IMG/VR virus record: IMGVR_UViG_3300002835_000123
Direction: 5' to 3' (one strand)
DNA: 64,000 bases
DNA from: an uncultured virus (IMG/VR IMGVR_UViG_3300002835_000123)
Lineage: Duplodnaviria > Heunggongvirae > Uroviricota > Caudoviricetes
Each line of letters starts with the position of its first letter. Within the stretch, counting starts at the first letter, position 1. The notes under the pieces are model-generated. The model saw only the letters and a list, made by a program, of their open reading frames with translations. It searched no databases and had not been told where the DNA came from. Shown here one piece after another: positions 21,643 through 63,631 of the stretch. Made by a program: the position numbers and the translations under genes.

Positions 21643-21653
21643 AAAAAAATAAA

Positions 21654-26516: not shown

Positions 26517-26548
26517 TTAATAAATTGTATAACCTTAAATAAAATAAA

Positions 26549-35286: not shown

Positions 35287-35296
35287 AAATAAAAAA

Positions 35297-47358: not shown

Positions 47359-47367
47359 TAAATTTAT

Positions 47368-47982
47368 ATGAAAAATAAAAAAAATTATTCAAAAGAAGAA
47401 TATATCAAATTTTGGGGAGAAAATGGATATATTGAAACATGGGATGGTCATAAGTATAATTGGTCAGAAGAAATAAAAAATTTAGTATTGAATCAAATTG
47501 GATTTAAAAAAGACAAAGAAGTTTTAGAAATAGGTTGTGGTGCAGGATATTGGACTAAATTTCTTTGTGAAAACTCAAAATATGTTACGGCAATAGACTT
47601 AATACCGAACCCACCTTTGAATGAAAAAAACTTTAGATATATAGAAAATGAAAATTTACAATTCGATTGTAATAAAATAGATAATGAATCTATTGATTTT
47701 GCTTTCTCTTTTGGAGTTTTTTGCCATTTGTCAAAAAGTGCTTGTGAATCTTATTTAAAAGATACTCTTAGAGTTTTAAAAAAAGGAGGAACTGCAATAT
47801 TTATGTATTCAGATGATAAAGGTTTAAAAGAATTTTATAAAGATGAAAATTTTGTTGCATCAAGAATTTATGGTCAATACAATGACTATTCTGACTTTAT
47901 GCCAATTTTAAAAAAATATGATTCTGAATGTAAGAAAATATTAGAATTTAGAGATTTATTAGTTTTAATAACAAAAAAATAA
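47368..47982 (+). CDS. class I SAM-dependent methyltransferase
   Basis: VLEIGCGAG, DFAFSFGVFCHL, RVLKKGG. Confidence 0.88.
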   Translation: MKNKKNYSKEEYIKFWGENGYIETWDGHKYNWSEEIKNLVLNQIGFKKDKEVLEIGCGAGYWTKFLCENSKYVTAIDLIPNPPLNEKNFRYIENENLQFDCNKIDNESIDFAFSFGVFCHLSKSACESYLKDTLRVLKKGGTAIFMYSDDKGLKEFYKDENFVASRIYGQYNDYSDFMPILKKYDSECKKILEFRDLLVLITKK

Positions 47983-48000
47983 ACAAAAAATAAACAAAAA

Positions 48001-48675
48001 ATGAACAACTCACAACTATTGGATATAATAGCAGGTGCTTTATATTCCACAAAAGAAACTCAAATGAATAGTTATAATTTGGGTAAATATGTAGTAGAAA
48101 AAAATATAGAAGGAGATATTATTGAATGTGGAATTGCTATGGCAGGTAATTTTGCATCTATGATTTTAGGTGCTACTTCTTTTCCACAAGGACAGAGCCG
48201 TAAATTTTGGGGTTTTGATAGTTTTGTTGGAATCCAATTAGCAGGTAAAAAAGATACTCAACAAGCAGGTATAGGTGCAATAACACACAATACAGATGTT
48301 CCTTATGAAGATTTGTTGATTAGTAGTGGTATTACATCACATTCAAAACAACAAGTTTTAAATAATTTAAATGCTTGGGGTTTATCAAAATATCAAATTG
48401 AACTTGTTGAGGGATGGGTTCAAAATACTATACCATTAGTTAATGATAGAATAAATAAAATATCTATTTTAAGATTGGATATGGATGTTTACCATCCTAC
48501 AAAATATACCTTAGATATGTGGTGGGATAAAATATCAAATGGCGGAGTTATAATTATTGATGATTGGGCATTAGATGGAGTAAGAACTGCGTGTTACGAA
48601 TTTTTTGAAGAAAAAAATATTTCTCCTGAAATACATACGATACCAAATTCAACACCAACGTATTTTTTCAAGTAA
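48001..48675 (+). CDS. TylF/MycF-family sugar O-methyltransferase
   Basis: EGDIIECG, GFDSFVG, GWVQNT, LRLDMDVY, GGVIIIDD. Confidence 0.88.
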   Translation: MNNSQLLDIIAGALYSTKETQMNSYNLGKYVVEKNIEGDIIECGIAMAGNFASMILGATSFPQGQSRKFWGFDSFVGIQLAGKKDTQQAGIGAITHNTDVPYEDLLISSGITSHSKQQVLNNLNAWGLSKYQIELVEGWVQNTIPLVNDRINKISILRLDMDVYHPTKYTLDMWWDKISNGGVIIIDDWALDGVRTACYEFFEEKNISPEIHTIPNSTPTYFFK

Positions 48676-48685
48676 TTTAAAATTT

Positions 48686-49267
48686 ATGAAATTATCTATA
48701 ACAATAGCATCTGTTAGCATAAGAAAAGATATGCTTGATAATCTTTTAGCTGAATTAAATAAACAAATAGAAGAAAATAATTTAAAAAATGAAGTTGAAA
48801 TATTGGTAGATGATGATGATTCTCGATATTTAGGCACAAAAAGAAAAATGATGTTAGAAAAAGCAAAAGGTTTATTTACTTGTGCTATTGATGATGATGA
48901 TTTTATAAGTTCAGACTATGTTAAATTAATTGTGGAAGCTATAAACAAAGACGAATCAGTTGATTGTTTAGCAATTAATGGAGTTATTACTTTCAATGGT
49001 TTAAATCCTAAAAAATGGTTTATTTCCTGTCATTACGAAGATTGGTATGAGGAAAATGAAATATATTATCGCACACCTAACCATATTTGTCCTATAAAAA
49101 CAGAGTTAGCAAGATTAGGAAATTTTGATGATGTAGCATGGGGAGAAGATTATCCATTTTCGCAAAGAATGAAATCTATTCTGAAAACAGAAACAATAAT
49201 TGAAGAACCTTTGTATTATTATCAATATAGTACAGAAAATTCATTACACGATTACCAAAATAAGTAA
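48686..49267 (+). CDS. GT2-family glycosyltransferase
   Basis: KLSITI, GTKR, IDDDD, NHICP, GEDYPF; ATG 48686 preferred. Confidence 0.8.
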   Translation: MKLSITIASVSIRKDMLDNLLAELNKQIEENNLKNEVEILVDDDDSRYLGTKRKMMLEKAKGLFTCAIDDDDFISSDYVKLIVEAINKDESVDCLAINGVITFNGLNPKKWFISCHYEDWYEENEIYYRTPNHICPIKTELARLGNFDDVAWGEDYPFSQRMKSILKTETIIEEPLYYYQYSTENSLHDYQNK

Positions 49268-49269
49268 AT

Positions 49270-49917
49270 ATGAGTGATAGTAACATTTTTTATGTAGGTG
49301 TTTCAAGGTCAGGAAGTCATTGGCTAAGAATAGTTCTTGAAGAATATATGCAGGGTAAAAGTCCTGTATCTAATTTTATAGCTTGTAAAGATGATATTAA
49401 TGTACTTATGAGCCATTTAAATGATTTTAAAGGAACACATGATATGACACTTGACTTTGAGGCAGAAAATGTTATATACCTTTATAGAAATCCAATAGAT
49501 TGTATTTTTTCTAATTTGAAATACGACCAAACAACTATTGACAATATAGAATTAATAGATAAATATTTAAATATTTGGAATAAACACATTCAAAAATGGG
49601 TGTTCGATGAAAAATTTACAAAAAGAAAAGTAATTCTTTCCTATGAAAATCTAAAAAAAGATTTTGTAAAAGAATTTTCGAAACTCTTAGTGTATCTGAA
49701 TTTAGAAGTAGATGAAAAAAGAATTATTTTGGCAAAGGAAACATATACAAAGAATAAAATAAGAGAAATAGTACACGATAAGAAAGTAATAAATAATGAA
49801 ACAGATTATGAATTACAAAGAGAAAGATTTGTTGATTTGTTTGGTAAATATATTTTTGATAAACTACCTTTAACACATAAAGATATTTGTATATTTCCTG
49901 AAAAAATATTTGGTTAA
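49270..49917 (+). CDS. PAPS-dependent sulfotransferase
   Basis: GVSRSGSHWL (5'-PSB loop), IYLYRNPIDCIFS (3'-PB), LSYENL. Confidence 0.82.
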   Translation: MSDSNIFYVGVSRSGSHWLRIVLEEYMQGKSPVSNFIACKDDINVLMSHLNDFKGTHDMTLDFEAENVIYLYRNPIDCIFSNLKYDQTTIDNIELIDKYLNIWNKHIQKWVFDEKFTKRKVILSYENLKKDFVKEFSKLLVYLNLEVDEKRIILAKETYTKNKIREIVHDKKVINNETDYELQRERFVDLFGKYIFDKLPLTHKDICIFPEKIFG

Positions 49918-49918
49918 A

Positions 49919-50512
49919 ATGAAACATTTGTCTATTTTGATTCCTACTTTACCTTTGAGAATTGATAGTTATGCTTCTTTAATTAAAAATATTTCAAATC
50001 AAATTAAAAAAAACAACTTAGAGGATAAAGTTCAAATATTAACTTTTTTAGATACAAAAGAATTATCTGTTGGTGAAAAAAGAAATATATTATTGAGAAG
50101 TAGTATAGGAAAGTATATTTGTTTTATAGACGATGATGATATAATATCAGAGGACTACCTTCAAGAAATATTTAATGCTATTCCTCATGATGCAGATTGT
50201 ATAACATTTTTGGGAGAATACATAGAACAGGGTTTTAAAAAAGATTTTGTTATAAGCACAATGAATAGAGATAACTACAATGAACCTAATTGTTTTTATA
50301 GATTGCCTAATCATTTGTGTCCTGTAAAAAGAGAAATAGCTTTAAGTAGTTTATTTTCAAATAAAAACTATGGAGAAGATTCTGATTATGCGTCAAAAAT
50401 TAATAAATATATTAAGAATGAGTATCATATTCGAAAAAAACTTTATTTCTATATGTATGACGATGCTAAAAGTCAAACATCACCTACTAATGCTAACAAA
50501 AAAATATACTAA
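49919..50512 (+). CDS. GT2-family glycosyltransferase
   Basis: LSILIPT, GEKRN, CFIDDDD, NHLCP, GEDSDY. Confidence 0.82.
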   Translation: MKHLSILIPTLPLRIDSYASLIKNISNQIKKNNLEDKVQILTFLDTKELSVGEKRNILLRSSIGKYICFIDDDDIISEDYLQEIFNAIPHDADCITFLGEYIEQGFKKDFVISTMNRDNYNEPNCFYRLPNHLCPVKREIALSSLFSNKNYGEDSDYASKINKYIKNEYHIRKKLYFYMYDDAKSQTSPTNANKKIY

Positions 50513-50760
50513 TGGAAAAAATTGAATATATAAAAGTAATGGGTATTGGGTTTGAAGGTTTAAGCGAAATTGGTAATTACATAGTAATTTGGAATGAATC
50601 TAATGACACTAAAAAATTAGATAAAAAGGAAAAAAAGTTTGTTAGTTTGAACGAAGCAAAAATATTTTTTGAATCCTTGTGTTACGATAAGGCAATATTA
50701 AATGAAAATATGCCTGAAGATAATAATGTATTAGATTGTTATGTAAAAACAAAATGTTAA
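50512..50760 (+). CDS. hypothetical protein
   Basis: Overlapping stop/start with neighbour. Confidence 0.5.
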   Translation: MEKIEYIKVMGIGFEGLSEIGNYIVIWNESNDTKKLDKKEKKFVSLNEAKIFFESLCYDKAILNENMPEDNNVLDCYVKTKC

Positions 50761-50779
50761 ATTTGAAAAAATAATTATT

Positions 50780-51277
50780 ATGAAAAACGAGCATCAACAA
50801 CAAGTTGCAATGGCAACCGAAGTAGGTAAATTGTTACCTGAAACAAAAGAGAAAGTAGAATACTACAAAGAAATCATAAAAGCAGAAGCAGAACTAATTG
50901 ATAGTTATGAAAAAAGGCAATCTAAATGGTGGATTTCATCAGTAAATAAAGCAAAAGAAAAATCAGAAATAATTAAGTTAAGAAATTCAATCATTCAAAA
51001 AAAGAAAGTATTTGAATCATATTTAAAAAGAAAAAATCAGTACGAGAAATGGTTGGATGAAATGGCTATTGAAGTAAATGATAAATTTGATAATGTAATT
51101 GCTATTGCTAAAGAAATACCATTTTCTTCTAATCCAAGACTTCACGATGGTATTGCAAAATGGGAAGAATTGTCAGAACAAAATTCTTTGCAAGACAAGG
51201 TGGAAATGTATTTGTTTATGAAGAATGAAATAAAAAACTACGAGAAATTCAATAAGAAAAGACTTTTTGTTGACTAA
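50780..51277 (+). CDS. hypothetical coiled-coil protein
   Basis: Helical, K/E-rich ORF. Confidence 0.5.
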   Translation: MKNEHQQQVAMATEVGKLLPETKEKVEYYKEIIKAEAELIDSYEKRQSKWWISSVNKAKEKSEIIKLRNSIIQKKKVFESYLKRKNQYEKWLDEMAIEVNDKFDNVIAIAKEIPFSSNPRLHDGIAKWEELSEQNSLQDKVEMYLFMKNEIKNYEKFNKKRLFVD

Positions 51278-51287
51278 CTTTATATTT

Positions 51288-51881
51288 ATGCTGAATGAAT
51301 TTAATCAAATATATTTTAAAGAAATTTCCAATAGAATAGAAAAACAACAAATACAATTTGATTTAGCAAGAATACATTCTCATAGACACATATCAAGGTG
51401 TTTAGTATACAGCGAATGGATATTAAAATGCTTAAAACACGAATTGGATTATGAAAATAATTTAGATTTATTATTCGCAATTTCATTTCATGACATAGGT
51501 AGAATACAAGAAGGTATTGATAATACTAATTATCAGTCATCTTTAATTGCCCAAGAAGAAATGACAAAAATGAATGTAGATACAAGAATCATAGAATCAA
51601 CAAAAAAATTAATTCAGGAAAAAGATAATTCTGATAATTACGATATTAAAAGAATGATTTTACATGATGTTGATTGTTTTGATATTATGCGACCAAGTAC
51701 AGGTAGAGGTGGTATAATTGGATTCAACAAAGATTTTTTATGTTTATTTAAATCTAATCAAAACAATTATCAAAATGAACTTATTAGTAAGTGTTTTAAC
51801 CTAATCAACATAACTGAAAATGAATCATTTGAAAATGTTGATTGTTTAAAAAATATTTTGAAATCAAAATTAAATGAGTAG
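51288..51881 (+). CDS. HD-domain phosphohydrolase
   Basis: HSHRHISR...FHDIGR...HDVDCFDIMR. Confidence 0.75.
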   Translation: MLNEFNQIYFKEISNRIEKQQIQFDLARIHSHRHISRCLVYSEWILKCLKHELDYENNLDLLFAISFHDIGRIQEGIDNTNYQSSLIAQEEMTKMNVDTRIIESTKKLIQEKDNSDNYDIKRMILHDVDCFDIMRPSTGRGGIIGFNKDFLCLFKSNQNNYQNELISKCFNLINITENESFENVDCLKNILKSKLNE

Positions 51882-52446
51882 TTTGTCAATATGTATTTGT
51901 CATTATGATAACGAACAAAGAAATCATAATCTAATTACAATTTGGAATAAGTTAAATTTTCAGATTAGAGAAAATAATTTAAAAGAAAATGTTGAAATAC
52001 TTATAGATACAGATACAGGTCAATCTTATGTTGGAGAAAAAAGAAATAGACTATTAGATAAATGTTCTAAAGAGTATGTGTGCTTTATTGACGATGATGA
52101 TGATATATCAGATAATTATTTAAAGGATATATTTGATAACTTAGAAAACAATGATATACTTTTTTTAAGAATAAAACACATTGTAAACGGAGAGTATAAA
52201 AAAACAATAGTTCCTTCTTTACATATTGAAAATGAAATAGGAGAATATTACTTTGTTAAAAATCATTTTCACCTATGCCCACATAAATTATATTTAGCAA
52301 AAGAAATTTACTTTCCAATTTCTTCATTTGCAGAGGATTTAGAATATTCTATAAACCTATCAAAAAAAATATATTTACATAAATATTTAGAAAATCCAAT
52401 TTACATTTATCTTGATAATATAAATACAAGTCTTACAAGGAAATGA
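51874..52446 (+). CDS. GT2-family glycosyltransferase
   Basis: GEKRN, CFIDDDD, HLCP, AED; paralog of 48686 and 49919 genes. Confidence 0.8.
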   Translation: MSSLSICICHYDNEQRNHNLITIWNKLNFQIRENNLKENVEILIDTDTGQSYVGEKRNRLLDKCSKEYVCFIDDDDDISDNYLKDIFDNLENNDILFLRIKHIVNGEYKKTIVPSLHIENEIGEYYFVKNHFHLCPHKLYLAKEIYFPISSFAEDLEYSINLSKKIYLHKYLENPIYIYLDNINTSLTRK

Positions 52447-52931
52447 ATCCTTTGAATAATCAAAATTTTACAAAGTGGTTTGATAAAAGTGTTACTATTG
52501 ATGAATACAATAATCCATTAGTATTTTATCATAAGAGTAGAAGTAAGGAATTATTTTATTTTTTTGAATTAGAAGGTAATATCGAAAAAAATCCATTTAA
52601 TACTGACTATGGAGTTTATTTTGTTAAAAAAGAGTATGCTCATTATGTTCAGCATTTAGGAGAAGGTTTAGATTTTTTATGTTATTTGAAAATACTAAAT
52701 CCTTTTATTATTCATGATGTAAATGGTAAATCACATGATATGAATGGAAATAATTATGAATATATTTCCTTACATAAAGAATTTTGCTTGGACAAAATAA
52801 ACAAAGGGTTTGATGCAATAATCATCACTAATATTGCTTACACACAATATATCGTTTTTAGTTCCTACCAAATAAAACACATTAATAATGTAGGTTCTTT
52901 TTCTGAAGAATCAAAAAATATATTCGTTTAA
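52443..52931 (+). CDS. stand-alone ART-PolyVal-like ADP-ribosyltransferase
   Basis: NFTKWF.KS...NNPLVFYH, GVYF, YLKILNP, GFDAII, QYIVFSSYQIK. Confidence 0.65.
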   Translation: MNPLNNQNFTKWFDKSVTIDEYNNPLVFYHKSRSKELFYFFELEGNIEKNPFNTDYGVYFVKKEYAHYVQHLGEGLDFLCYLKILNPFIIHDVNGKSHDMNGNNYEYISLHKEFCLDKINKGFDAIIITNIAYTQYIVFSSYQIKHINNVGSFSEESKNIFV

Positions 52932-53549
52932 CTACATATCTAAAATATTAGGTATGTGGCATATTATGTACGAAGCACCATATACTTTGTCGTAGTTTTT
53001 AGACCATTTCACAAGTTTTTGAACAAATTTGAAATCATGTCCATAACCATTACACTTATCCCAATTAATAGATTTTAAATTTTTATGGAAAATACTTGAA
53101 GTACCAATACTATGTTCAACACATTCAACATTTTTAACTTGAAGTCCGTTAGGTGTGTATATATAATCATTGTAATATCCCCAATCTAAATTTGATATTT
53201 GAGAAACTACTGATTTAATATGATTTTTACCAAACATATCATCTGTATCAAGATACATAATGTAATCTCCTGAAGCGTATTTTAAACCTACTGAACGAAT
53301 ATTTCCTGAAAATGTACTTTCCTTTTTTACAAAAAAATATTTTATTATTCCTTCTTTTAAAGGTTCTGAAAAATTATTACAAAGTAAAGATTGGGTTAAT
53401 TCACAACCATCACAAACTATAATTAGTTCCTTATTATCATAGTCATTCTGTAAAAAAGAATTTACTGAACGCATGAATTTTTCTTCTCTATTTGATGCAC
53501 AACCTTCGTACTCACCAAGAAAAGAAGGCATTATAACACTTATTTTCAT
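52932..53549 (-). CDS. GT2-family glycosyltransferase
   Basis: KISVIMPS, ELIIVCDG, GDYIMYLDTDD, GHDFKF. Confidence 0.85.
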   Translation of the reverse strand: MKISVIMPSFLGEYEGCASNREEKFMRSVNSFLQNDYDNKELIIVCDGCELTQSLLCNNFSEPLKEGIIKYFFVKKESTFSGNIRSVGLKYASGDYIMYLDTDDMFGKNHIKSVVSQISNLDWGYYNDYIYTPNGLQVKNVECVEHSIGTSSIFHKNLKSINWDKCNGYGHDFKFVQKLVKWSKNYDKVYGASYIICHIPNILDM

Positions 53550-53550
53550 T

Positions 53551-54249
53551 TTAAAATCTTATTGTTGTTTGATTCTTATGTTCACAATATATTGAAGTAT
53601 CTACATATACAGGTATTTTTTTGGCATCTAAATCATAAAATAAAAAGCTATCAGGGTGAACAGGAGAGCCTTCTTCATATCTAAAACAAAATTCTTTTAA
53701 AACAGAACGATGTATTAAAATGCAACCAATACCACAGCTAAAAACTTGTTTTATTTGACCATCTACAAATGATAAATCGGTTTCATCAAGATTATATGAT
53801 TCTCTAATATCTTCACCAAAATCTTCTAATTGCTGAATCATCAATTTACTTCTTTCCCCAACTTCGATATGATACATTGCACCTATTACTTTTTTCTTAG
53901 CATCCAATAATCTCTCAATTACATTTGCAGGAGGAAAAATATCAGTTTCAAGGTGTAATAAATAATCAAAATCTTCATCTAAAGCCTTCAATCTACATTG
54001 TTCATGAGATTTTGCTAATGCCCATTTGAAATCAGGAAATTGAGAAGGAGTAACTCTACCCATATTGAAAAAACTACCCAAGTGTTTGTATTTTTCTTTT
54101 GTTTCAATATAATAATCTCTTACTTCAGAATTATCACACAAAAACAACTTAGCATTTTTATAAGTAAATGATGAAACATTTTTCATCCATTCATTAAAAC
54201 AATAATCTTTTAAATCAGCAGTAGGACTTGCTATCAATACTTTTTTCAT
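53551..54249 (-). CDS. GT-A fold glycosyltransferase
   Basis: DYLLHLETDI, GIGCILIHRSVL, HPDSF, VDTSIYCEH. Confidence 0.7.
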   Translation of the reverse strand: MKKVLIASPTADLKDYCFNEWMKNVSSFTYKNAKLFLCDNSEVRDYYIETKEKYKHLGSFFNMGRVTPSQFPDFKWALAKSHEQCRLKALDEDFDYLLHLETDIFPPANVIERLLDAKKKVIGAMYHIEVGERSKLMIQQLEDFGEDIRESYNLDETDLSFVDGQIKQVFSCGIGCILIHRSVLKEFCFRYEEGSPVHPDSFLFYDLDAKKIPVYVDTSIYCEHKNQTTIRF

Positions 54250-54605: not shown

Positions 54606-55370
54606 ATGATGAAAAATAGTTTCAACATTGACCGATACCTAAACGAAGCTGAAGAAAGATTTAGTGGCTTCTATGGTGATGATTATGACGATTTCGAAGG
54701 AATGGATGATTTTGACCTTTTCGAAGGTGAAATCTATGATGATTTTTCAATGGCTGAAGGGCAACCTGCACCTGCTAAATCACCATCCCCTTACCAAGTA
54801 AACGTAACTAACACTACGGCAGGTTCTTTGACATTAGTATTGTTTGGTAAAAACCAATTCTTATTGTCAACTAACTTTGGTTCGTCTGTTGGTCTTATCG
54901 TTGCACCTGCTCAAACAAACGTGTCTTACTTGCAGTTGTTACAACAATCTGCTGACCAACCATTCGAAACTTCATTGATTCGTATTCAGTCAGCTTCTTC
55001 TACGCAAGTTACACAAATCTTGACAATTAGCGTTACTGATGCTAACGGACAAAGTGCAACATTGCCTTTAATCACTCAAAGTTACTTCTCTGCTTACCAA
55101 CAACAAAGTGGAATTTTGGATGTGCCTTACCAATTAAAAATTGATGGCAACACTTCAATTACTACTACAATTTTGGCTAACACATCTGTAACTTATACTT
55201 TCTTCCCTGCTGAAAAAGTAAATGTTTCTAAAGGTCTTACAGGTTCAAGTGCAGTACAAGTTTATGGAAACCCACAAGTTAATCTTGGTGGTATGACTTT
55301 CCCTAAGCGACCTTCTCTTGCTAAACCAAGACCACGCAGAAGATTAGGCATGAGAGGTGATAGAAGATAA
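54606..55370 (+). CDS. candidate major capsid protein (beta-rich, single jelly-roll-like) with acidic N-terminal and basic C-terminal extensions
   Basis: T/S/V/Q-rich beta-strand pattern; visibly more C-ending codons (TTC, AAC, TAC) than neighbours; own promoter, 5' hairpin 54544-54563, terminator; paralog at 61043. Confidence 0.6.
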   Translation: MMKNSFNIDRYLNEAEERFSGFYGDDYDDFEGMDDFDLFEGEIYDDFSMAEGQPAPAKSPSPYQVNVTNTTAGSLTLVLFGKNQFLLSTNFGSSVGLIVAPAQTNVSYLQLLQQSADQPFETSLIRIQSASSTQVTQILTISVTDANGQSATLPLITQSYFSAYQQQSGILDVPYQLKIDGNTSITTTILANTSVTYTFFPAEKVNVSKGLTGSSAVQVYGNPQVNLGGMTFPKRPSLAKPRPRRRLGMRGDRR

Positions 55371-55403: not shown

Positions 55404-55433
55404 AAAGGCAAACCATAATGTTTGCCTTTTCTT
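55404..55433 (+). terminator. intrinsic terminator after candidate capsid gene
   Basis: AAAGGCAAAC-CATAAT-GTTTGCCTTT-TCTT. Confidence 0.8.
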
Positions 55434-55450
55434 ATTTAAAAATTAACTAT

Positions 55451-55906
55451 ATGAAAGATAGAATATCATTACAAGAATTAATTGCTTTAAATAACACGCC
55501 AAAAGCAAAAGCATTGGTAGTAAAATATGGTTATTCACCTGCAAGAAATTATGATGATTTGACTTATAAGTTAATGAGATTTACAAAAGACTTTCAAGAG
55601 GAGGCTTTAAAAGAATTGGCTAATATTCATCCACACAAAGATTTAATACTAAATTATAATCAATTTGAATTGCCAAAAAAAATAGAAGAAAATGAAAAAA
55701 GTAATGATGATATGTGTCAATGTAGATTATGTCGTCAGAAAAGATTACAAAACCAAATGAATTATGCAAATTTTGAAGGTGAAGTAACGCAAACAAATGA
55801 TAAAAACGAAAAAACAAGCAATCCGTTAAAGGATTTTGCTCCCACAATATTAATTGCTACAATGACCTCATTTATTGTAGTTGGATTATTAGTAAATGTA
55901 AAATGA
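55451..55906 (+). CDS. C-terminally anchored membrane protein (putative virion)
   Basis: HPHKDLIL, CQCRLC, YANFEG, C-terminal TM; ATG 55451 preferred since 55418 is inside the terminator. Confidence 0.65.
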   Translation: MKDRISLQELIALNNTPKAKALVVKYGYSPARNYDDLTYKLMRFTKDFQEEALKELANIHPHKDLILNYNQFELPKKIEENEKSNDDMCQCRLCRQKRLQNQMNYANFEGEVTQTNDKNEKTSNPLKDFAPTILIATMTSFIVVGLLVNVK

Positions 55907-56400
55907 AAGGAAGCGGTATAGACATATCACATCAATTTATTTTATTAGAGGATTCTCCTATATTAAATATTCAAGGAAATAATGTAGAAGAAAGCGATAA
56001 AAAATTAGTAAAAGGAACTATTGTTGAAGGTTCTCTAAAAACAAGGATTGTAAAATTAGGAGATTTAAAAAGACCATATAAATTTGTTGAACTAAAAAAT
56101 AAAAAAGGTTATTTATCTCCAAGAGTTGTGAATATTTATATTGGAAAATTTGCTAATTTAGAGGGTGAATTAACCAATTCAGAAAATAATGGTGCTGATG
56201 TGAGTTTAAATATGTATCAAAAGCCACCAAAAAAGAAAAGAGTAAAAGATATTTTTATAAATTATGGACTTCCAATAGCAGGAGGTTTTATAGGATATAA
56301 AATAGCTAAAAGAATGGAAGCAGATGATAAAAAAACATTAGGTTTTGTAGTGTTTTTTGCATTAATTGGTTTGATTCCAAGATATATGTTAAACAAATAA
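55903..56400 (+). CDS. membrane protein, SH3-like N-terminal region, two C-terminal TMs
   Basis: KGTIVEG...FVELKNKKGYL; FANLEG; two hydrophobic segments. Confidence 0.6.
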   Translation: MKGSGIDISHQFILLEDSPILNIQGNNVEESDKKLVKGTIVEGSLKTRIVKLGDLKRPYKFVELKNKKGYLSPRVVNIYIGKFANLEGELTNSENNGADVSLNMYQKPPKKKRVKDIFINYGLPIAGGFIGYKIAKRMEADDKKTLGFVVFFALIGLIPRYMLNK

Positions 56401-56410
56401 AAAATAAATT

Positions 56411-57088
56411 ATGATTTACGTGGAAAATGATTTTTATTCGAATTTCAACGCAGTAAGCAAGTCAAATGATGAAATGGCTATGCAGTCAATTTTAGTAGAC
56501 CAAATATCAAATTTGATTGCATACAACAGAGAAGAAGTATTAGATTTACTTAGGAAATCAGAAATAAAACTACCTCCTAAACCAAAAAATAAAGATATTG
56601 TAAAAGCAATAGTTCAAAATCTAAAAACTAACAAGAAATTGGTTATTGGACTTGCTTATTTAATTGCAAAAAACAATGATTTACTTCAAGAACAAACGAA
56701 AAGAGGTAGACCGCAAGAAATGAAATCATCTTTTGAAGATAAAACAAAAACTACAACGGATAAAAAAGAAAAAAAACCTGTTGATTGGAACAGAACTCTT
56801 GATGCAGTTAATGTAGTTGGTGGTTCAATTTCAGTATTTGCAGATACTCTAACAGGAGTTAAGCAAAGTAGTTTAGAACAGCAATTAAATTCTGCAACTC
56901 AAAGCAAATCACCTGAAGATTTAGCAAGGGAACAAGCAGAAAAATTAGAAGCAGACAAAAAGGCAAGAAGAAAAAGAAATACTAAAATAGCAGTAGGGGT
57001 TCTTTTACTTGCAGGTGTAGGAGTTGGAGTTTATTTTGCATGGAAAAAAGGATGGTTTGCTAAAAAATCAGCACCCATAGAAGCGTAA
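56411..57088 (+). CDS. C-terminally anchored membrane protein (putative virion)
   Basis: IAVGVLLLAGVGVGVYFAWKK. Confidence 0.65.
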   Translation: MIYVENDFYSNFNAVSKSNDEMAMQSILVDQISNLIAYNREEVLDLLRKSEIKLPPKPKNKDIVKAIVQNLKTNKKLVIGLAYLIAKNNDLLQEQTKRGRPQEMKSSFEDKTKTTTDKKEKKPVDWNRTLDAVNVVGGSISVFADTLTGVKQSSLEQQLNSATQSKSPEDLAREQAEKLEADKKARRKRNTKIAVGVLLLAGVGVGVYFAWKKGWFAKKSAPIEA

Positions 57089-57143
57089 TTATATAGTTTA
57101 TACCTTAAAATAATTAAAATAAAAACAAACAAAACAAAAAAAA

Positions 57144-57704
57144 ATGGAAGATTTAAACCTTGTTGATGATAGTTTTGAATTATGGCACAATTCAGAAGGA
57201 GAAAGAGCCTTGTATAACAAAATCGTTAAAACATATCCAAGTGAGGATAATATGTTTGATGTATTAAATTTTGAAGGTGAAGAAAATTCTTCAACCGAAC
57301 AAAAGACTACTGAAAAACAAAAATTAGATTTAGATAAGTTAGGAGAATCAATAGTTACAACGGCAGGTGCAGTTGGTTCTGTTTCAACTACAATTCAAGC
57401 CTTTAAAGGTGATGGAACTAAAAAGGCACAGCGATTAGCGGTTAAAGATGTATGTGGTAAAAAACCAACAGCATTTAGCAAAAAAGCAAGAAAAGAGGAA
57501 TACAAAAAATGTATTACAGACTATCAAGCAAAAAAAATGGCAATGTTAGATGCACAAACAAAAAAATCAGAAGAAGTTGTAATCAAATCAGATGAAACAA
57601 AAACAGGTATGAGTACAACTACAAAAGTTTTAATAGGAGTTGGTGTACTTGCTTTAATTGGAGGTGTAATTTATTTTGTTCGTAGAGGTGCGTCTGCAAA
57701 ATAA
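57144..57704 (+). CDS. C-terminally anchored membrane protein (putative virion)
   Basis: HNSEG, LNFEG, CGKKP...YKKC, VLIGVGVLALIGGVIYFVRR. Confidence 0.65.
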   Translation: MEDLNLVDDSFELWHNSEGERALYNKIVKTYPSEDNMFDVLNFEGEENSSTEQKTTEKQKLDLDKLGESIVTTAGAVGSVSTTIQAFKGDGTKKAQRLAVKDVCGKKPTAFSKKARKEEYKKCITDYQAKKMAMLDAQTKKSEEVVIKSDETKTGMSTTTKVLIGVGVLALIGGVIYFVRRGASAK

Positions 57705-58240
57705 TGGCAAAAAAAGGTGTTTACAGATTACTATTTTCTATTGAAGCACCCGATTTAACAAAATCGGAAGTTGCAGGTAAATTAATTACCCAACTTTTCA
57801 ATGAAGATGAAATAGTGATGGGTGAATATTACAAAAAGGAAAATATACTTGTAGATGGTCGTTATGTAATACCATTAGCGTATGTAGAAAAGGAAGATAA
57901 ACTTCCATATTTAAAAAAAGATAGTTCGTTTGACGAAACGATAGATAGATTAAAACAACAATCACTTATTTTAAGTGAAAAAGAAAAGGAAAGACTAAAT
58001 GATATTGGAAATAGTATCAAAAGTCAAATAGAAGGAAAAAAAGCACAACAAATCAAAGCTGAAACAAAGGCAATGAAAAATGGTGCATTATTAGGACTTG
58101 GTATTGGTATTATTACGGCTTTGTACTTAAAAAGAAACATTTGGCTAATTTCATTAATAGGTTTATCTGTTGGTGGATATGTAGCACACAAGATAGTTAA
58201 AGCAAAACAGGGAAATAACGAAGTAGAACCAATAGCTTAA
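57704..58240 (+). CDS. membrane protein with two C-terminal glycine-rich TMs
   Basis: GALLGLGIGIITALYL; LISLIGLSVGGYVA. Confidence 0.65.
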   Translation: MAKKGVYRLLFSIEAPDLTKSEVAGKLITQLFNEDEIVMGEYYKKENILVDGRYVIPLAYVEKEDKLPYLKKDSSFDETIDRLKQQSLILSEKEKERLNDIGNSIKSQIEGKKAQQIKAETKAMKNGALLGLGIGIITALYLKRNIWLISLIGLSVGGYVAHKIVKAKQGNNEVEPIA

Positions 58241-58242
58241 AA

Positions 58243-58554
58243 ATGAAAGAATTTGATTTAGATGTTTATAGTGGATTTCAAGATGAAATTACTACGACTG
58301 AAAATAAAAATGTAAAAAAAAATACAACCTCAAGTGAACCTCCAAAATGGCAGGAGAGTTTAGGTAAACTAACAGATTTTGTAAAAGAATATGGAGGAGC
58401 ATATTCAGAACAGAAAGCACCTGTTTATTCTGAAGGTAAAAAAGTGCGTAAGTTTGGTATGCACCCATTAGTATTTGTTGCTGTATCTTTAGGACTTGTA
58501 ATAGCAGGTTCTATAACTTTAGTATATTTAGGTAGAAAAAAAACTATTAAATAA
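58243..58554 (+). CDS. small C-terminally anchored membrane protein
   Basis: FGMHPLVFVAVSLGLVIAGSITLVYLGRKK. Confidence 0.65.
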   Translation: MKEFDLDVYSGFQDEITTTENKNVKKNTTSSEPPKWQESLGKLTDFVKEYGGAYSEQKAPVYSEGKKVRKFGMHPLVFVAVSLGLVIAGSITLVYLGRKKTIK

Positions 58555-58555
58555 C

Positions 58556-60220
58556 ATGGAAACAAAAAAAATATCAAAAGATACCATGTTGCGTGAAATG
58601 AAAAAACGCAAAAGTGCCGTTCAGAAAAAAATGATGAAAACTGCTGATAGGATTCGTCTTATTGAAGATTTCAAAAAACAGACTATTGGTAAAGATGTAA
58701 CTTTCAAAGAGTATTTGAAAGCAAAAAATATTGATATAAATAAGTTTTTTGCACCAATGGGATATTATACAGGTGCAGAAAAAGTAGTAAGTAATGATAA
58801 AGAAAATTTACTTCTTGTTTATTGTCAAGGAATGGAGTTTAATCCAAAGGCAGGTTATCATACCCCATCAAGAAAAATAGTTTCTGAAAAAGACCACAAT
58901 GATGTCATACAAAGTAATTTAGGAATGACATGGAATCCAAAATTAAGTCAATATTTTCCAACTACAATTTTTGATACAAATGCCTATTCAAGTGCAGAAG
59001 GTTCAGGAGATACAGGAATTGATATTATGGGCGGTTTAAGGGTAGAAGATTTTTCTAACTTGAACAATAAATCTTATGATGGTGAGGATTACACTTGTTT
59101 TGTCCAAGATTTACTAATTGAAGAATATGATAATTTAGAGGGAGAATTAGATTTGATTGAGGGTTCTATTGGTTCTCTTTATTCTGATTTTGAGGGAGAA
59201 GAAGAAAAAAGTCAAGGAGGAAAAAATTTAAGATGTAGAACAATATGTACTTCTAAACACGCATTTAATAAAAACAAAAGACAAGAATGTTTTGATGAAT
59301 GTGATAAGAAATTTAAACCTTCTGAAAAACAAGAAGAACGTAGAGCAGAGAGAGAAGAAAGAAAAGAATCAAGAAAAGAATTTCGTGAGGATAAAAAGAA
59401 TTGTAAAGAAAGACTACGCAAAGGAGAGATAAATCAAAAACAATATAGAGATTGTCTTAAAGCAGAGAGAAAAGAAAAGAAAAAAGGAGTAAAAGAAGCA
59501 GGAGGAACATTTTTTGTTCGTGCATGGAGAAGCACAGCTAAAGTATTTCCTATTACACTTGTAGGAAGAAATGGAGCATTGTTTATGATAGGTGAAAATG
59601 CTTTCGGTTTTGGAACAAGAGTAGCACCTGCATTACTTTCTGATGAAGAAGCTAAAAAAATATTTAAACCTGAATCAATCAAAAAATCTAAACAAAGTTG
59701 GTTGAAATTACAAAAAGCATGGAAGAATTTAGGTGGTGATGTTGATGCTCTTAAAAAATCTATTCTTAAAGGCTATAAGAAAAAAGCTATGAAAATAGAA
59801 AAAAAATCAAATTTTGAAGGTTCTGAATATACTTATTCATATCAAATAGATTCTGATTATTCTAATTTCTTTGAGCCTGTATCAACAGGAACTTTAGTAA
59901 TAGCAGGAACAAGTGTAGTTACAAGTTTAATTCCTTTAATTGGTAATAATGATAAAGACCCATTCGTTGAAGGACAAACGCCTACTGATTATAAAGAATC
60001 TTTGAGAAGTGGTGATGTAGATAACATACCAACACAAGGAGAAAATACACCAATAGTAGACCCAAATACAGGTGATTGGATTGACCCAAATACAGGTAAA
60101 AAAATAGACCCAACAACAGGTAAATATGATGATAACATATTAGGAATGAACAAATGGGTAGCGATAGGATTAGGAGTAGGTGCATTAGTAGGAGTATATT
60201 ATTTAACGAAGAAAAAATAG
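58556..60220 (+). CDS. large C-terminally anchored membrane protein with several S/N-F-E-G motifs
   Basis: YSSAEG, YDNLEG, YSDFEG, KSNFEG; Cys/basic region; DPNTG x3; ILGMNKWVAIGLGVGALVGVYYLTKKK. Confidence 0.65.
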   Translation: METKKISKDTMLREMKKRKSAVQKKMMKTADRIRLIEDFKKQTIGKDVTFKEYLKAKNIDINKFFAPMGYYTGAEKVVSNDKENLLLVYCQGMEFNPKAGYHTPSRKIVSEKDHNDVIQSNLGMTWNPKLSQYFPTTIFDTNAYSSAEGSGDTGIDIMGGLRVEDFSNLNNKSYDGEDYTCFVQDLLIEEYDNLEGELDLIEGSIGSLYSDFEGEEEKSQGGKNLRCRTICTSKHAFNKNKRQECFDECDKKFKPSEKQEERRAEREERKESRKEFREDKKNCKERLRKGEINQKQYRDCLKAERKEKKKGVKEAGGTFFVRAWRSTAKVFPITLVGRNGALFMIGENAFGFGTRVAPALLSDEEAKKIFKPESIKKSKQSWLKLQKAWKNLGGDVDALKKSILKGYKKKAMKIEKKSNFEGSEYTYSYQIDSDYSNFFEPVSTGTLVIAGTSVVTSLIPLIGNNDKDPFVEGQTPTDYKESLRSGDVDNIPTQGENTPIVDPNTGDWIDPNTGKKIDPTTGKYDDNILGMNKWVAIGLGVGALVGVYYLTKKK

Positions 60221-60226
60221 AAAATA

Positions 60227-61042
60227 ATGGTTATTGAAATACCATCAAATTATTATCCATTTCAACTCAATATGTTTGTTGAATCTAAAGACTTAATTAA
60301 ATTAAGAATAGTAGCGTATGACCCAAACAAACCTTCAACAAAATATTTGGATAGGGTAAGTAAATTAAATGGTAAAAGAAAATACGAATTAAAATTTCCT
60401 GTTGCACCACAAAGATTAAAGATAGCCGTATTTAATGTAGCTAATGGAAGTTTACCTTATGGTGAGGATAGTTCATTTGAATTAGCAGATTTAAAAGTAG
60501 ATAGAATAAAAGAGTATGATGTTTGGTGGAACGCAGATACTCGAAACTTCTACAAATTTGCAGTAGAATTTAGTCAAAATGCAAGTATTCTTTCAGCAGG
60601 AGAATCAAAACCACATATTTACAGAAGTGATGATGGTAAATTTACTATTGATTATTATAACAATATAATTGATAAAAAAAGTAATAAAAAACTAACAACA
60701 CCTGCAAGGATAGGACACAATACAGGAATTATTGAGGTAAGTAAATCAAAGTTCATGAATTATAGTGTGCCTATGCGTATCTTAATTTTAATGCACGAAT
60801 ACGCACACAAATACCTTAATCCAAAAATAGGTAGGGAAATATCTTATGAAACAGGTGCAGATATTCAAGCACTTTATGTTTATTTAGGTAAAGGATGGTC
60901 GCCTTATGAAGCACATAAAACATATTTACAAGTATTTAGAAATGCCAATAATAAATCAAATCATAAGAGATATAAAATAATTGATGATTTCATTAAAAAA
61001 TATGAAAATGGACAAGTTTCAAATGAAATAAAAATGAAATAA
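60227..61042 (+). CDS. zincin-type metallopeptidase
   Basis: ILMHEYAHKY (HExxH) with downstream ETGAD. Confidence 0.75.
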   Translation: MVIEIPSNYYPFQLNMFVESKDLIKLRIVAYDPNKPSTKYLDRVSKLNGKRKYELKFPVAPQRLKIAVFNVANGSLPYGEDSSFELADLKVDRIKEYDVWWNADTRNFYKFAVEFSQNASILSAGESKPHIYRSDDGKFTIDYYNNIIDKKSNKKLTTPARIGHNTGIIEVSKSKFMNYSVPMRILILMHEYAHKYLNPKIGREISYETGADIQALYVYLGKGWSPYEAHKTYLQVFRNANNKSNHKRYKIIDDFIKKYENGQVSNEIKMK

Positions 61043-63631
61043 ATGTCTGAACCAATAAATATAATAGACATAAACGAAAATGAAAGTGTTGCACAATTCA
61101 ATTTTGAAAACAACACATCTTCTCCTATTGCTATAAATTTATTTGATACCGCATCTTTACAGACAATTCCGACAAGTGGTAGCACTCAAACTTCCTATAC
61201 ATCTTCAGGTGATTTGTTACCATCTTTACCACCAAGTTTATTGGAATTTAATCCAACAAATAATGTAATTTTATCAGCAGACCCACTTACTGATTCATAT
61301 AGAGTAATTAACACACTCACAAATACAACTAACAATTCGTTTGATAACTCTATTGGTTTTAATGCCCAAGTTAATGCAATAGTCATACAAACAGATGGTA
61401 AAATCCTTGTAGGCGGTGCATTTGTAGGATATAAAGGACTAACAGAAAATCGTATTATACGATTAAACAGCGATGGCACAAAAGACCTAACTTTTGATAA
61501 CTCTATTGGTTTTAATGCCCAAGTTAATGCAATAGTCATACAAACAGATGGTAAAATTCTTGTAGGCGGTGCATTTACAACATATAAAGGACTAACAGAA
61601 AATCGTATTATACGATTAAACAGCGATGGCACAAAAGACCTAACTTTTGATAACTCTATTGGTTTTAATAATCAAGTTTTTTCAATAGCCATTCAAACAG
61701 ATGGTAAAATACTTTTAGGCGGTGCATTTATAACATATAAAGGACTTGCAGAAGTTCGCATCATACGATTAAACAGCAATGGCACAAAAGACCTAACTTT
61801 TGATAACTCTATTGGATTTGATAATGTTACTCGTAAATTAGCCATACAAACAGATGGTAAAATCCTTGTAGGTGGTCAATTTACATTATACAAAGGACTA
61901 ACAGAAAATCGTATCATACGATTAAACAGCGATGGCACAAAAGACCTAACTTTTGATAACTCTATTGGTTTTAATAGTTTTGTTAATAGAAACGCAATAG
62001 CCATACAAAACGATGGTAAAATCCTTGTAGGCGGTGCATTTGTAGGATATAAAGGACTAACAGAAAATCGTATTATACGATTAAACAGCGATGGCACAAA
62101 AGACCTAACTTTTGATAACTCTATTGGTTTTGATGATGAAGTAAATTTAATATCAATACAAAATGATGGTAAAATCCTTGTAGGCGGTGCATTTACAACA
62201 TATAAAGGGGTATCGGAAAATCGTATAATACGATTAAACAGCAATGGCACAAAAGACCTAAGTTTTGATAACTCTATTGGTTTTAATAATGATTTAATTG
62301 ATTTAGCCATACAAACAGATGGTAAAATCCTTGTAGGCGGTTCATTTACAACATACAAAGGTTATACTAACAATTTTATAATTAATTTAGATACGAATGG
62401 TAATACTAATTCAGTATTACAAGTAGGAAATAATTCTTCTGATTTAGCATATTGTAGCATCAACAATACTTTTTACACCTGTCCAATAGCAGGTATAAAT
62501 AATGATATTAGTGAAATAAGTGGGGATGGTCAAATTAAATTAACTAATATAATATTGCCTTCGCCTACACAAGTTTGTGAGCAAGTAGAATACAATGTTT
62601 CTAATAATTCTATGTATTATTTAGTGGCAAATACATTTCCAACACCACATGATATTTTAGTATTAGATTGCAGTACAAACACATTTACAGCAACTATTAA
62701 TATGCCTTCAGCGTTGATTAGTGGTTTGTCAAATGTTACCGCAACTAATGATATGTATTTTTTTGATGGTACATCAGGATTGTTACAAAAAATAAATTGC
62801 ACATCAAATACCATAGTTTTAGTAAATATTACACTACCAAACATAAGTGTATCGGTAAGTTCTATTCAATACAACGCATCAACTAATTTAATATATGTAA
62901 TGAGTTCTGCTACAAATATTGTAGATGTTGTTGATGCAAGTACAGACACATATTTAACATCAATTACAATACCTGCTATATATAACTTTAGTCCATTTTT
63001 ATCTTCAATAAATACAACTACAAATCAGTTATTTATTTCAGATAGTAATGCACTAAACCAAAAGCAGTTTGCAGTTATTGATTGTCAGAGTAATACATTT
63101 AATGCAGTACAATCTTTAGGAATAGGAGTAGGAGCAACGTATGGAGTTATGTACAATTCCTACAATCAGCAAATGTATGTTAGTGGTTCATTATTTTCAA
63201 TCGTTACCTTTATAGCAACACCATTCTTTATTGGAGGTACAAATTACAACTATTTTGTAAATAGTTTAACCAACGAACCTATATCAGTAGACAAAATACG
63301 GATTATTACAATAAGCCAAATACAATTATATAACCAAGTACAATTCACGAAAATAGATTCAAATGGTAATCAAATATTCTTCCCTGAATTTCCAATTACT
63401 AAAGTTGATTCATACCAAGAACAAGGTAATATATCTATATTAAAATTGAATGGTTTAATATTCGATGGAAGAACTTACATAAATGGTTATGTAATCAACC
63501 CAAATCAAGTAGTAAGTTTTGAAGTATATTATAGGCAATTAGACAGAGATAATATTAAAAGTTTGTTTGAAAAACTAACCTTTAAAAAACAATTATTGAA
63601 AGGTCTTTTTGATGATGCAGTTGAGTTATAA
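61043..63631 (+). CDS. capsid-protein paralog with inserted delta-60-type and second beta-propellers (candidate vertex/spike protein)
   Basis: IQTDGKILVGG.F...RIIRLNSDG..D.TF repeats; N- and C-terminal segments align by eye with 54606-55370. Confidence 0.7.
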   Translation: MSEPINIIDINENESVAQFNFENNTSSPIAINLFDTASLQTIPTSGSTQTSYTSSGDLLPSLPPSLLEFNPTNNVILSADPLTDSYRVINTLTNTTNNSFDNSIGFNAQVNAIVIQTDGKILVGGAFVGYKGLTENRIIRLNSDGTKDLTFDNSIGFNAQVNAIVIQTDGKILVGGAFTTYKGLTENRIIRLNSDGTKDLTFDNSIGFNNQVFSIAIQTDGKILLGGAFITYKGLAEVRIIRLNSNGTKDLTFDNSIGFDNVTRKLAIQTDGKILVGGQFTLYKGLTENRIIRLNSDGTKDLTFDNSIGFNSFVNRNAIAIQNDGKILVGGAFVGYKGLTENRIIRLNSDGTKDLTFDNSIGFDDEVNLISIQNDGKILVGGAFTTYKGVSENRIIRLNSNGTKDLSFDNSIGFNNDLIDLAIQTDGKILVGGSFTTYKGYTNNFIINLDTNGNTNSVLQVGNNSSDLAYCSINNTFYTCPIAGINNDISEISGDGQIKLTNIILPSPTQVCEQVEYNVSNNSMYYLVANTFPTPHDILVLDCSTNTFTATINMPSALISGLSNVTATNDMYFFDGTSGLLQKINCTSNTIVLVNITLPNISVSVSSIQYNASTNLIYVMSSATNIVDVVDASTDTYLTSITIPAIYNFSPFLSSINTTTNQLFISDSNALNQKQFAVIDCQSNTFNAVQSLGIGVGATYGVMYNSYNQQMYVSGSLFSIVTFIATPFFIGGTNYNYFVNSLTNEPISVDKIRIITISQIQLYNQVQFTKIDSNGNQIFFPEFPITKVDSYQEQGNISILKLNGLIFDGRTYINGYVINPNQVVSFEVYYRQLDRDNIKSLFEKLTFKKQLLKGLFDDAVEL
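61340..62405 (+). repeat. coding tandem repeat, 7 units of about 153 bp (51-aa delta-60-type repeat)
   Basis: TTTGATAACTCTATTGG at 61340, 61493, 61646, 61799, 61952, 62111, 62264. Confidence 0.95.

Follow-up and report, generated by a model that had tools for sequence, protein, structure and literature searches.

A jelly-roll domain interrupted by predicted nested propellers suggests a virion-anchored host-recognition head in an uncultured virus

Introduction

Near the 3' end of a 64,000-nucleotide stretch of DNA (hereafter the window) from IMG/VR record IMGVR_UViG_3300002835_000123, an uncultured virus, an open reading frame (ORF) of 862 residues raises an unusual question. Its two ends resemble a 254-residue protein encoded upstream, and most of what lies between them is made of propeller-type repeats. 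Do the ends belong to a single domain and, if so, what might a virus do with a domain opened up in this way? A sequence-only reading of the locus had taken the 862-residue protein for a paralogue of a capsid protein, split by ~690 residues of beta-propellers, and had proposed a vertex or minor capsid protein displaying a receptor-binding head from a capsid loop. The regions concerned, with the evidence on which each was placed, are as follows.

61043–63631, + strand: ORF P0121, 862 residues, split jelly roll with two nested beta-propellers (ORF call, Pfam and NCBIfam, hidden Markov model (HMM))
61085–61198, + strand: N-terminal piece of the jelly roll, residues 15–52, its first two strands, VAQFNFENNT..INLFDT..IPT (HMM of uninterrupted homologues)
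61247–61327, + strand: possible first YVTN-type blade signature, residues 69–95, upstream of the delta-60 array (regular expression and alignment of relatives, both soft evidence)
61340–62377, + strand: seven delta-60/DUF5122 repeats, residues ~100–445 (Pfam, NCBIfam, tandem array in the DNA, regular-expression scan)
62378–63196, + strand: remainder of the predicted YVTN/YncE-type propeller, residues 446–718 (family profile against PDB sequences, weak NCBIfam YncE match, regular expression)
63197–63553, + strand: C-terminal piece of the jelly roll, residues 719–837 (HMM; hhalign with the 254-residue family)
54606–55370, + strand: 254-residue paralogue with the domain uninterrupted, core residues 62–200 at nucleotides 54789–55205 (HMM, hhalign, synteny)

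We find that the two ends match one domain, and that this jelly-roll domain, common to a conserved protein of the structural module, suggests a virion-anchored head for host recognition that can be swapped.

The split domain and its family

When the last 173 residues of the 862-residue protein were searched against 1.84 billion representatives (50% identity level), 113 proteins were found at E ≤ 0.001, 33 of them at E ≤ 1e-30. Some family members are just 180–255 residues long and contain the domain uninterrupted; in these, VQFNLVNNT..LSLFDT..IPT is followed within ~10 residues by YISG..NYN.FV...DANG...LDG.T.I..Y.I.AN..V.F..YY. An HMM of 151 positions, built only from ten of these uninterrupted homologues, matches the 862-residue protein in two pieces, residues 15–52 corresponding to positions 4–40 (independent E-value (i-E) 2e-5) and residues 719–837 to positions 30–149 (i-E 5e-29). 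With a broader HMM that includes family members, the N-terminal piece reaches 9e-10. The same 151-position model covers residues 62–200 of the 254-residue protein with its positions 5–141 (i-E 3e-19). Since the two pieces end at residue 52 and resume at residue 719, the insert spans ~666 residues; the large split insert of the sequence-only reading thus stands, at a size somewhat below the ~690 residues given there.

Two-piece matches, by thresholds that we set ourselves, were found in 60 of the 113 representatives, with inserts of 272–644 residues (median 301.5). Whole copies only are present in 25 and the C-terminal part only in 26, the latter being fragments or having an N-terminal piece below threshold; two are false positives (P0162 and P0234 were rejected as family members because their matches are to SpaA repeats). 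The motifs align column by column across an alignment of 80 sequences, in which there is a single insertion site, after residue 51 of the 212-residue member P0225. Split proteins range from 480 to 871 residues, most family members having ~500. There are also relatives with 2–4 copies of the jelly-roll domain in one chain, a locus with two adjacent copies of the split gene (L025) and other loci in which additional complete copies of the domain are fused to the split protein.

The domain is tied to the 254-residue protein by comparison of profiles. By hhalign, the 254-residue family aligns with the uninterrupted forms at a probability of 98.4% (E 6e-15) over 168 columns that include the N-terminal strands, and with the 57 split forms alone at 96.6% (E 5.5e-10), residues 105–203 pairing with residues 732–832. 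At the level of sequence profiles, these comparisons show the 254- and 862-residue proteins to be paralogues and the shared region to be one domain interrupted in one conserved loop. The claim that termini flanking the insert make the two proteins paralogous had been drawn by eye from pairs of short motifs, and every one of the pairs then listed is aligned in the two hhalign outputs.

Besides the sandwich, the 254-residue protein has a conserved helix at its N terminus, an acidic tract and a C-terminal tail rich in Arg, and it is the most conserved protein of its gene module. Of 808 candidates, at least 349 cluster representatives are homologous to it at E ≤ 0.001; among the 120 matches listed, identity is 66–100% and the contigs reach 137 kilobases (kb). 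The mean column identity of the family is 71% (27 sequences). With these 349 and the 113 of the split domain, the family is abundant despite having no Pfam or PHROG name: the shared sandwich is absent from the Pfam models and from the named PHROG families, no PDB entry is related to it in sequence, and family profiles A2 and A1 gave 0 and 3 matches, respectively, to PDB sequences, the three being noise from acidic tracts. A profile search with A2 of a set of 5.8 billion proteins, by a method limited by shared words, returned eight proteins. The 254-residue protein, a 418-residue ORF and the C-terminal domain found no match by tblastn among 50,697 phage records, and in a scan of viral contigs none of eight pattern matches to the C-terminal domain was confirmed. 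A literature search, mostly at the level of records, found no published description of the family or virus group, nothing relevant on delta-60 repeats or DUF5122 in phages, and nothing relevant on jelly roll with propeller and penton or on membrane-containing jelly-roll viruses with FtsK–HerA ATPases from metagenomes.

Nested propellers in the insert

The delta-60 repeats have their cores at residues 118, 169, 220, 271, 324, 375 and 426 of the 862-residue protein. PF17164 (DUF5122) matches with E 1.7e-90 and 297.4 bits (cut-off 27) and TIGR02608 with 181.2 bits (cut-off 76.5), each in seven stretches; both curated cut-offs being exceeded, the protein belongs to the delta-60/DUF5122 class. The repeats are also visible in the DNA as a tandem array with a 153-nucleotide period (61340–62361, 6.6 copies, 85% matches), and the only PHROG match to the protein, the unnamed phrog_5490, lies over this region. 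Presumably the seven repeats form a seven-bladed propeller.

For the remainder of the insert, the evidence comes mainly from relatives. Among PDB sequences, family profile A3 (insert positions ~100–330), which describes the common ~300-residue insert, finds the YVTN propeller 1l0q (E 7e-53) as well as YncE 3vgz (E 7.6e-21), so that at the family-profile level the insert appears to be a propeller of the YVTN/YncE type. The window protein taken alone gives a weak YncE match (NF052280, residues 539–644, E 0.0029, 16.5 bits against a cut-off of 400). A regular expression finds four blade signatures, at residues 69, 517, 610 and 656, and by eye seven blades can be counted. With the delta-60 array standing between the first YVTN-type signature and the rest, the delta-60 propeller would be nested in the YVTN propeller, which supports a predicted arrangement of one propeller inside another that is itself inside the sandwich. 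Of the two propeller claims of the sequence-only reading, the seven delta-60-type repeats hold up against these matches, and their nesting in a second propeller-like region is supported.

Comparison of the inserts among relatives, which that reading had also proposed, separates a conserved frame from a variable insert. The C-terminal frame is 53–78% identical to relatives and the YVTN part 22–47%. The delta-60 array is found in four proteins of 847–871 residues, the window protein included, and is absent from the ~500-residue members; a 588-residue member carries about two delta-60 repeats. Inserts of other members have weak Pfam matches to lactonase, YNCE and NHL propellers, and one has a BNR propeller. 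The kind of insert therefore varies across the family between YVTN/YncE, BNR and delta-60.

Predicted fold of the domain

AlphaFold2 was run on the uninterrupted member P0225 with the 80-sequence alignment, the model being that of a homologue and not of the window protein. It has a mean predicted local distance difference test score (pLDDT) of 80.9, with blocks across residues 21–160 averaging 86–97, and shows nine strands in a jelly-roll sandwich with short helices after the third and fourth. The insertion site falls in the loop between strands two and three. The 254-residue protein itself had been modelled earlier from a shallow alignment; that model was of low quality (pLDDT 49.6), and its fold search served as a lead only; the ESM Atlas was uninformative for this protein (its own model had pLDDT 0.35, with template modelling (TM) scores ≤ 0.36).

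Single-jelly-roll capsid proteins lead the matches of the P0225 model in a Foldseek search of the PDB. Four matches have E ≤ 0.001 and probability 0.99–1.0, with TM scores of just 0.28–0.37; tomato aspermy virus is at the top (E 2.8e-4), and cowpea chlorotic mottle virus, potato leafroll virus, satellite tobacco mosaic virus and brome mosaic virus also appear. In BFVD, 55 matches have E ≤ 0.001, mostly unnamed and including several capsid proteins. VIA-align, which is independent of Foldseek, puts two chains jointly at the top with Z 6.7: one from grapevine fanleaf virus and a 124-residue chain of PR772 (root-mean-square deviation 3.1 over 99 residues). The latter is probably P5, since 124 residues is the modelled length of the P5 base in the available text of PMC6750898. 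They are followed by the Pa223 tail hub (Z 6.4), the triple-jelly-roll turret protein of Sulfolobus turreted icosahedral virus (STIV; Z 6.0), a geminivirus, satellite tobacco mosaic virus and PRD1 P3 (Z 5.9), and a repeated look gave a similar picture. Tail hubs match along whole chains: Pa223 9nwi_Y at Z 6.4, VP1 8zkm_E at 5.5–5.6, T7 6r21_a at 5.4 and phicrAss001 7qok_A at 5.2. The STIV chains scored 6.0 (4ind_A) and 4.8 (4il7_A and 6bo3_A), and the first model scored 6.2–6.6 against A223. At the level of fold, and for the modelled homologue P0225, the domain thus appears to belong with the single jelly rolls of viral type.

The conserved gene module

The split gene closes a module that begins with the 254-residue gene, and between the two lie the genes for seven putative membrane proteins and for a 271-residue protein. 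An ATPase gene further upstream is considered with them.

55418–60220, + strand: seven consecutive ORFs of 103–554 residues, each with a C-terminal hydrophobic helix and basic residues (read from the sequences; synteny)
60227–61042, + strand: 271-residue protein with an HEYAH (HExxH) motif (ORF call, synteny)
44531–45343, + strand: 270-residue P-loop ATPase, Walker A GKKGVGKT at residues 13–20 and Walker B LILED (sequence, PHROG, Atlas)

Sixteen related loci from metagenomes keep synteny with the window all the way from the 254-residue gene to the split gene. The 254-residue protein (66–80% identity) and the 271-residue HExxH protein (58–75%) are the best conserved and the split protein (26–58%) the least. 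In 14 of the 16 loci with at least 8.5 kb of downstream sequence, the split gene starts 5.6–6.3 kb after the 254-residue gene; the two that depart from this pattern are distant IMG/VR relatives. In one of these two, G001, the split gene is found 11 kb further on, once more immediately behind a homologue of the 271-residue gene, and beyond it comes a third, uninterrupted paralogue of 204 residues.

The split gene is always immediately preceded by the 271-residue gene, both in the 16 closer relatives and, at 47% identity, in G001; in the window, the ATG of the 862-residue ORF directly abuts the stop codon of the 271-residue ORF. The Pfam and PHROGs scans found no family match for the 271-residue protein, which may be a zinc peptidase or a spike partner and is a candidate partner of the split protein. 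Judged from their termini, the seven ORFs between the two jelly-roll genes are probably tail-anchored membrane proteins. In the distant relative L002, the equivalent membrane ORFs end in a common ILGMPK-helix motif. The last ~35 residues of the 279-residue homologue of the 254-residue protein (L002 10001–10840) recur in the same module, at the C terminus of a 208-residue membrane protein (L002 14271–14897); this tail, QQQVY..PV..AVPMF.P.QSVG..GQ.M.DPANR, could be a shared signal.

The 270-residue P-loop protein is a candidate genome-packaging ATPase. It has a weak PHROG match to a terminase family (phrog_2666, E 9e-6) and reaches no Pfam cut-off (AAA_22 at E 0.051); phmmer searches with it and with the 418-residue ORF found nothing among PDB sequences. 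Its nearest Atlas clusters have Zot or DUF87 in 13–20% of their members (Zot 14%, DUF87 17–20%) and carry mostly Uroviricota labels.

The genomes that carry the family

The window has 24–31% GC, has nearly all of its genes on the + strand and contains no tRNA gene. Three contigs of metagenome-assembled genomes carry both a homologue of the 254-residue protein and a gene 39–54% identical to the ATPase; they are titled Parvularculaceae (148 kb), Bacteroidota (375 kb) and Bacteroidales (109 kb), associations made by binning only. On the longest of these (G004:C16, 375,071 bases; loci L060, L063 and L067–L071) the 254-residue homologue is 56% and the ATPase 54% identical, and a 699-residue protein has about four tandem copies of the jelly roll. 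Five 20-kb samples of this contig contain RNA ligases, RtcB, ThyA, topoisomerase IB and homing endonucleases, at a uniform GC of 30–33%. An integrated prophage is unlikely here, given that none of the 33 ABC-transporter matches of that genome lies on the contig, and that its sampled regions have genes of phage type and uniform GC; the contig may come from a jumbo member of this group.

Hallmarks of tailed phages were sought in several sets. PF17289, PF03237, PF03354, PF05065, PF04860, PF07068 and PF12236 gave no match on five contigs with a 254-residue homologue, the 375-kb one included, the controls of the PF07068 scan being also without a match. In G003, such hallmark matches fall on contigs other than the one with the 254-residue homologue. 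PHROGs found no terminase, portal or HK97/Gp23 capsid protein in 44 of the 117 ORFs of G001, among them every ORF of at least 400 residues. In 27 window ORFs, PHROGs found no terminase, portal or HK97 capsid protein except for two matches, the weak terminase match of the ATPase and a portal-family match (phrog_15528, E 6e-5) that lands on the NUDIX region of a 1189-residue polyvalent protein. These absences are weakened by the incompleteness of the records and by the possibility of divergent forms.

Discussion

On balance, the 862-residue protein is probably a binding or host-recognition protein anchored in the virion. In the mechanism that we envisage, the sandwich would anchor the split protein in or on the particle through the contacts that its 254-residue paralogue makes, the most likely place being the vertex, by analogy with the base domain of P5 in PRD1/PR772, which is common to penton P31. 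The loop between the second and third strands would bear the seven-bladed YVTN/YncE-type propeller, with the seven-repeat delta-60 propeller nested in it, and the two together would form a distal binding head, projecting from one loop and binding the host surface. Incorporation into the particle, the vertex position, an outward loop, receptor binding and a membrane-containing jelly-roll capsid are all things that we infer. A conserved frame with variable propeller inserts fits a displayed binding head, and near-identical delta-60 repeats together with differing propeller types at one site would point to the exchange of heads as cassettes. The syntenic position of the gene, the putative membrane proteins of the module, the Zot- and DUF87-type neighbours of the ATPase, the lack of matches to seven tailed-phage families on the five contigs and the multi-copy jelly-roll proteins of relatives also speak for the virion-anchored reading. 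The specific version, a vertex protein of a jelly-roll capsid, we advance tentatively, as a proposal that may well fail. For the earlier suggestion of a receptor-binding head on a capsid loop, the viral-type jelly roll of the homologue and the variable propellers argue in its favour, and the capsid role is the part that the structural matches do not carry, the best Z being only 6.7. That the 254-residue protein is a capsid protein, a call which the same suggestion took to be supported as well, likewise goes beyond these matches: none exceeds that score for the confident model, and lectins, tumour necrosis factor (TNF)-like proteins and tail parts can be jelly rolls too.

The structural module of PRD1 has many small membrane proteins and a small ATPase, and in this the window, with its putative membrane proteins and candidate packaging ATPase, may resemble it. 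By analogy, the vertex of PRD1/PR772 would be the closest functional model: as there, a small base domain occurs in two paralogues, one short and one with what would be the host-recognition part. Unlike in PRD1/PR772, the head in the window protein sits inside a loop of the base domain rather than after it, with the propeller in the same chain; there is no detectable sequence similarity, no double-jelly-roll capsid protein was found, and the genomes are of ~100–375 kb as against 15 kb for PRD1. In the available text of PMC6750898, P31 and the base domain of P5 are paralogues that form the penton together, and the propeller-like P2 binds the receptor. The turret proteins A223 and C381 of STIV, to judge from the titles of 4ind, 4il7 and 6bo3, have jelly rolls repeated two or three times per chain, much as relatives of the split protein carry 2–4 copies; unlike the split protein, they have no propeller inserts, and they share no sequence similarity with it. 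STIV infects archaea and has a genome of 17 kb. The inserts themselves belong to the repeat families of delta-60 (TIGR02608)/DUF5122 and YVTN/YncE surface proteins. Those of bacteria and archaea usually have signal peptides and sorting domains, whereas here the propellers are nested in each other and in a jelly-roll loop, in a protein that has no hydrophobic signal-like stretch at its N terminus, as read from the sequence, and no secretion-sorting or anchor domain in a Pfam scan.

A number of points weigh against a virion-anchored head of this kind. Calling the 862-residue protein a capsid paralogue assumes that the 254-residue protein is the shell protein, since no major capsid protein of any known type, double jelly roll included, was identified in the window or its relatives, whose records are incomplete (CheckV 84% and 53%). 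All structural matches lie below Z 8, in the range that according to the tool may reflect a common arrangement only, and TNF-like proteins, carbohydrate-binding modules, nucleoplasmin and phage tail parts come within 1–2 Z of the capsid proteins; with no match at Z 8, the fold is that of a viral kind of jelly roll whose function is not fixed by structure. That residues 15–52 and 719–837 of the window protein fold together is expected from homology. Should the first strand correspond to B, the interruption would fall in the C–D connection, and in a penton standing upright as in PRD1 that end may face inward. To our knowledge, genomes of 100–375 kb are unprecedented for non-tailed bacterial viruses, which lowers the prior. 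The direct comparison of the two paralogues also counts here: with BLASTP the C-terminal part reaches E 0.002 and the N-terminal motif E 7.6, and an HMM of the 254-residue family misses the 862-residue ORF among the 190 ORFs of the window (E > 10), so that the paralogy rests on intermediates and on profile–profile comparison. Together with the richness of both proteins in N, T, S and Q, these figures might suggest a chance or compositional likeness, an explanation so improbable that it can be set aside; the independent HMM from third-party sequences matches both proteins, and with the two hhalign results it refutes such an explanation, as does the agreement of motifs, column by column, across the 80 sequences.

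Among functional alternatives, the split protein could be a relative or analogue of the tail hub or nozzle of podoviruses, in a very divergent tailed phage, the jelly roll made from both termini being the platform that binds the head-to-tail adaptor and the propeller serving the tail channel or host recognition. We consider this unlikely, but it is a serious rival, and the layout that it shares with the split protein is itself a point against the virion-anchored head. According to the available text of PMC6702177, T7 gp12 has a seven-bladed propeller and a nine-strand platform jelly roll, three strands of which come from a 45-residue N terminus, and in that of bioRxiv 10.1101/2025.06.11.659172, the apical domain of the 513-residue Pa223 gp59 is formed by residues 2–46 and 403–512 with the propeller between. 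As far as these texts go, a jelly roll made of ~45 N-terminal and ~110 C-terminal residues around a propeller, six- or seven-bladed in the hubs, is what the family also has, and gp59 is of the same size as the ~500-residue members. The P0225 model matches hubs along their whole chains, most labels of the Atlas clusters closest to the ATPase are Uroviricota, and a conserved gene directly precedes the split gene, an order for which the presumed parallel is T7 gp11 before gp12. Against this stand the absence of terminase, portal and HK97/Gp23 capsid families from the five contigs of relatives, the 44 ORFs of G001 and, with two exceptions, the 27 ORFs of the window; the seven putative tail-anchored membrane proteins; and the scores of the hubs (Z 5.2–6.4), which are tied with those of capsid, penton and unrelated sandwich proteins. 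A hub should be a single, well-conserved gene, whereas no gene of the module is less conserved than the split one (26–58% as against 66–80% for the 254-residue gene), which varies from 480 to 871 residues, is doubled in L025 and is fused elsewhere. The domain is moreover found free, as the most conserved small protein of the module, and in tandem arrays; the split family shares no sequence similarity with podovirus hubs, and no nozzle-tip or fibre-dock domains were seen in it. If the protein were a hub after all, this design of split jelly roll and propeller would reach far beyond known podoviruses, and its platform domain would exist as a free protein as well. Less probable still is a lectin- or adhesin-like accessory outside the virion, acting on the host surface or on other cells, its sandwich serving to bind sugars or to form oligomers. 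Within 1–2 Z of the capsid matches lie carbohydrate-binding modules, TNF-like lectins and PirA; propellers of the delta-60 and YncE types are, by their family names, common in bacterial surface proteins; and the module is closely preceded by many genes for glycosyl-, methyl- and sulfotransferases in one large cluster. Such an accessory is difficult to reconcile with the lack of a signal-like N terminus and of a sorting or anchor domain, with the fixed place of the gene at the end of a conserved module beside its most conserved small proteins, and with capsid proteins heading the Foldseek matches at probability 0.99–1.0.

The split protein is a clear candidate for the determinant of host range in this group, one fixed site taking YVTN, BNR or delta-60 propellers. 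It is conceivable, although we regard it as doubtful, that the genes belong to an undescribed lineage of bacterial viruses with a jelly-roll capsid, an internal membrane and an FtsK/HerA-type ATPase, in which the 254-residue protein would make up the shell and the split protein would be its vertex spike. Its genomes, of ~100 to at least 375 kb, would be ten times those of any non-tailed bacterial virus that we know of. Such elements are widespread in fresh and marine waters; equally speculative is the further picture of their swapping heads as propeller cassettes in one loop of a capsid protein. The 254-residue/split family is a marker gene for uncultured, large, low-GC, virus-like elements of aquatic origin, and offers a direct test of whether large genomes of bacterial viruses exist outside the tailed HK97 lineage.

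Other features of the window

Upstream of the 254-residue gene (45345–54249) and at 826–2197, the window encodes an adenylylsulfate (APS) kinase, a cytidylyltransferase-like protein, several family-2 glycosyltransferases, methyltransferases of the FkbM/TylF and other types and a sulfotransferase; judged from its sequences, the cluster appears to encode the synthesis of a glycan bearing sulfate or methyl groups. Three ART-PolyVal domains, a ParB-like domain, a NUDIX domain and a 1620-residue SNF2/DarB-like protein are encoded at 9197–27343 and 52443–52931. They belong to the polyvalent proteins, which are thought to be delivered with the DNA (PMC5512222, available text). The largest ORFs of no recognised kind, 31480–35286 (1268 residues) and 35204–38842 (1212 residues), overlap by 83 nucleotides when read from their first start codons, and translation of the second may in fact begin further downstream.

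A short motif, [YFM]-[ASDNEG]-x-G-G (for example, YAKGGGV, YSNGGGV and FADGGKI), recurs every 60–100 residues in the polyvalent and large unknown proteins at 9185–41877, in ORFs starting at 9197, 12777, 14426, 18355, 21654, 26549, 27935, 31480, 35204, 39127 and 41041. Adenain-type proteases cleave at GG-X sites, and from its sequence and spacing the motif resembles a linker, or a site for cleavage by a protease, placed between modules. It occurs 13 times in a 1274-residue frame as against 0.73 in shuffled sequences, and 9 times in a 773-residue frame as against 0.31.

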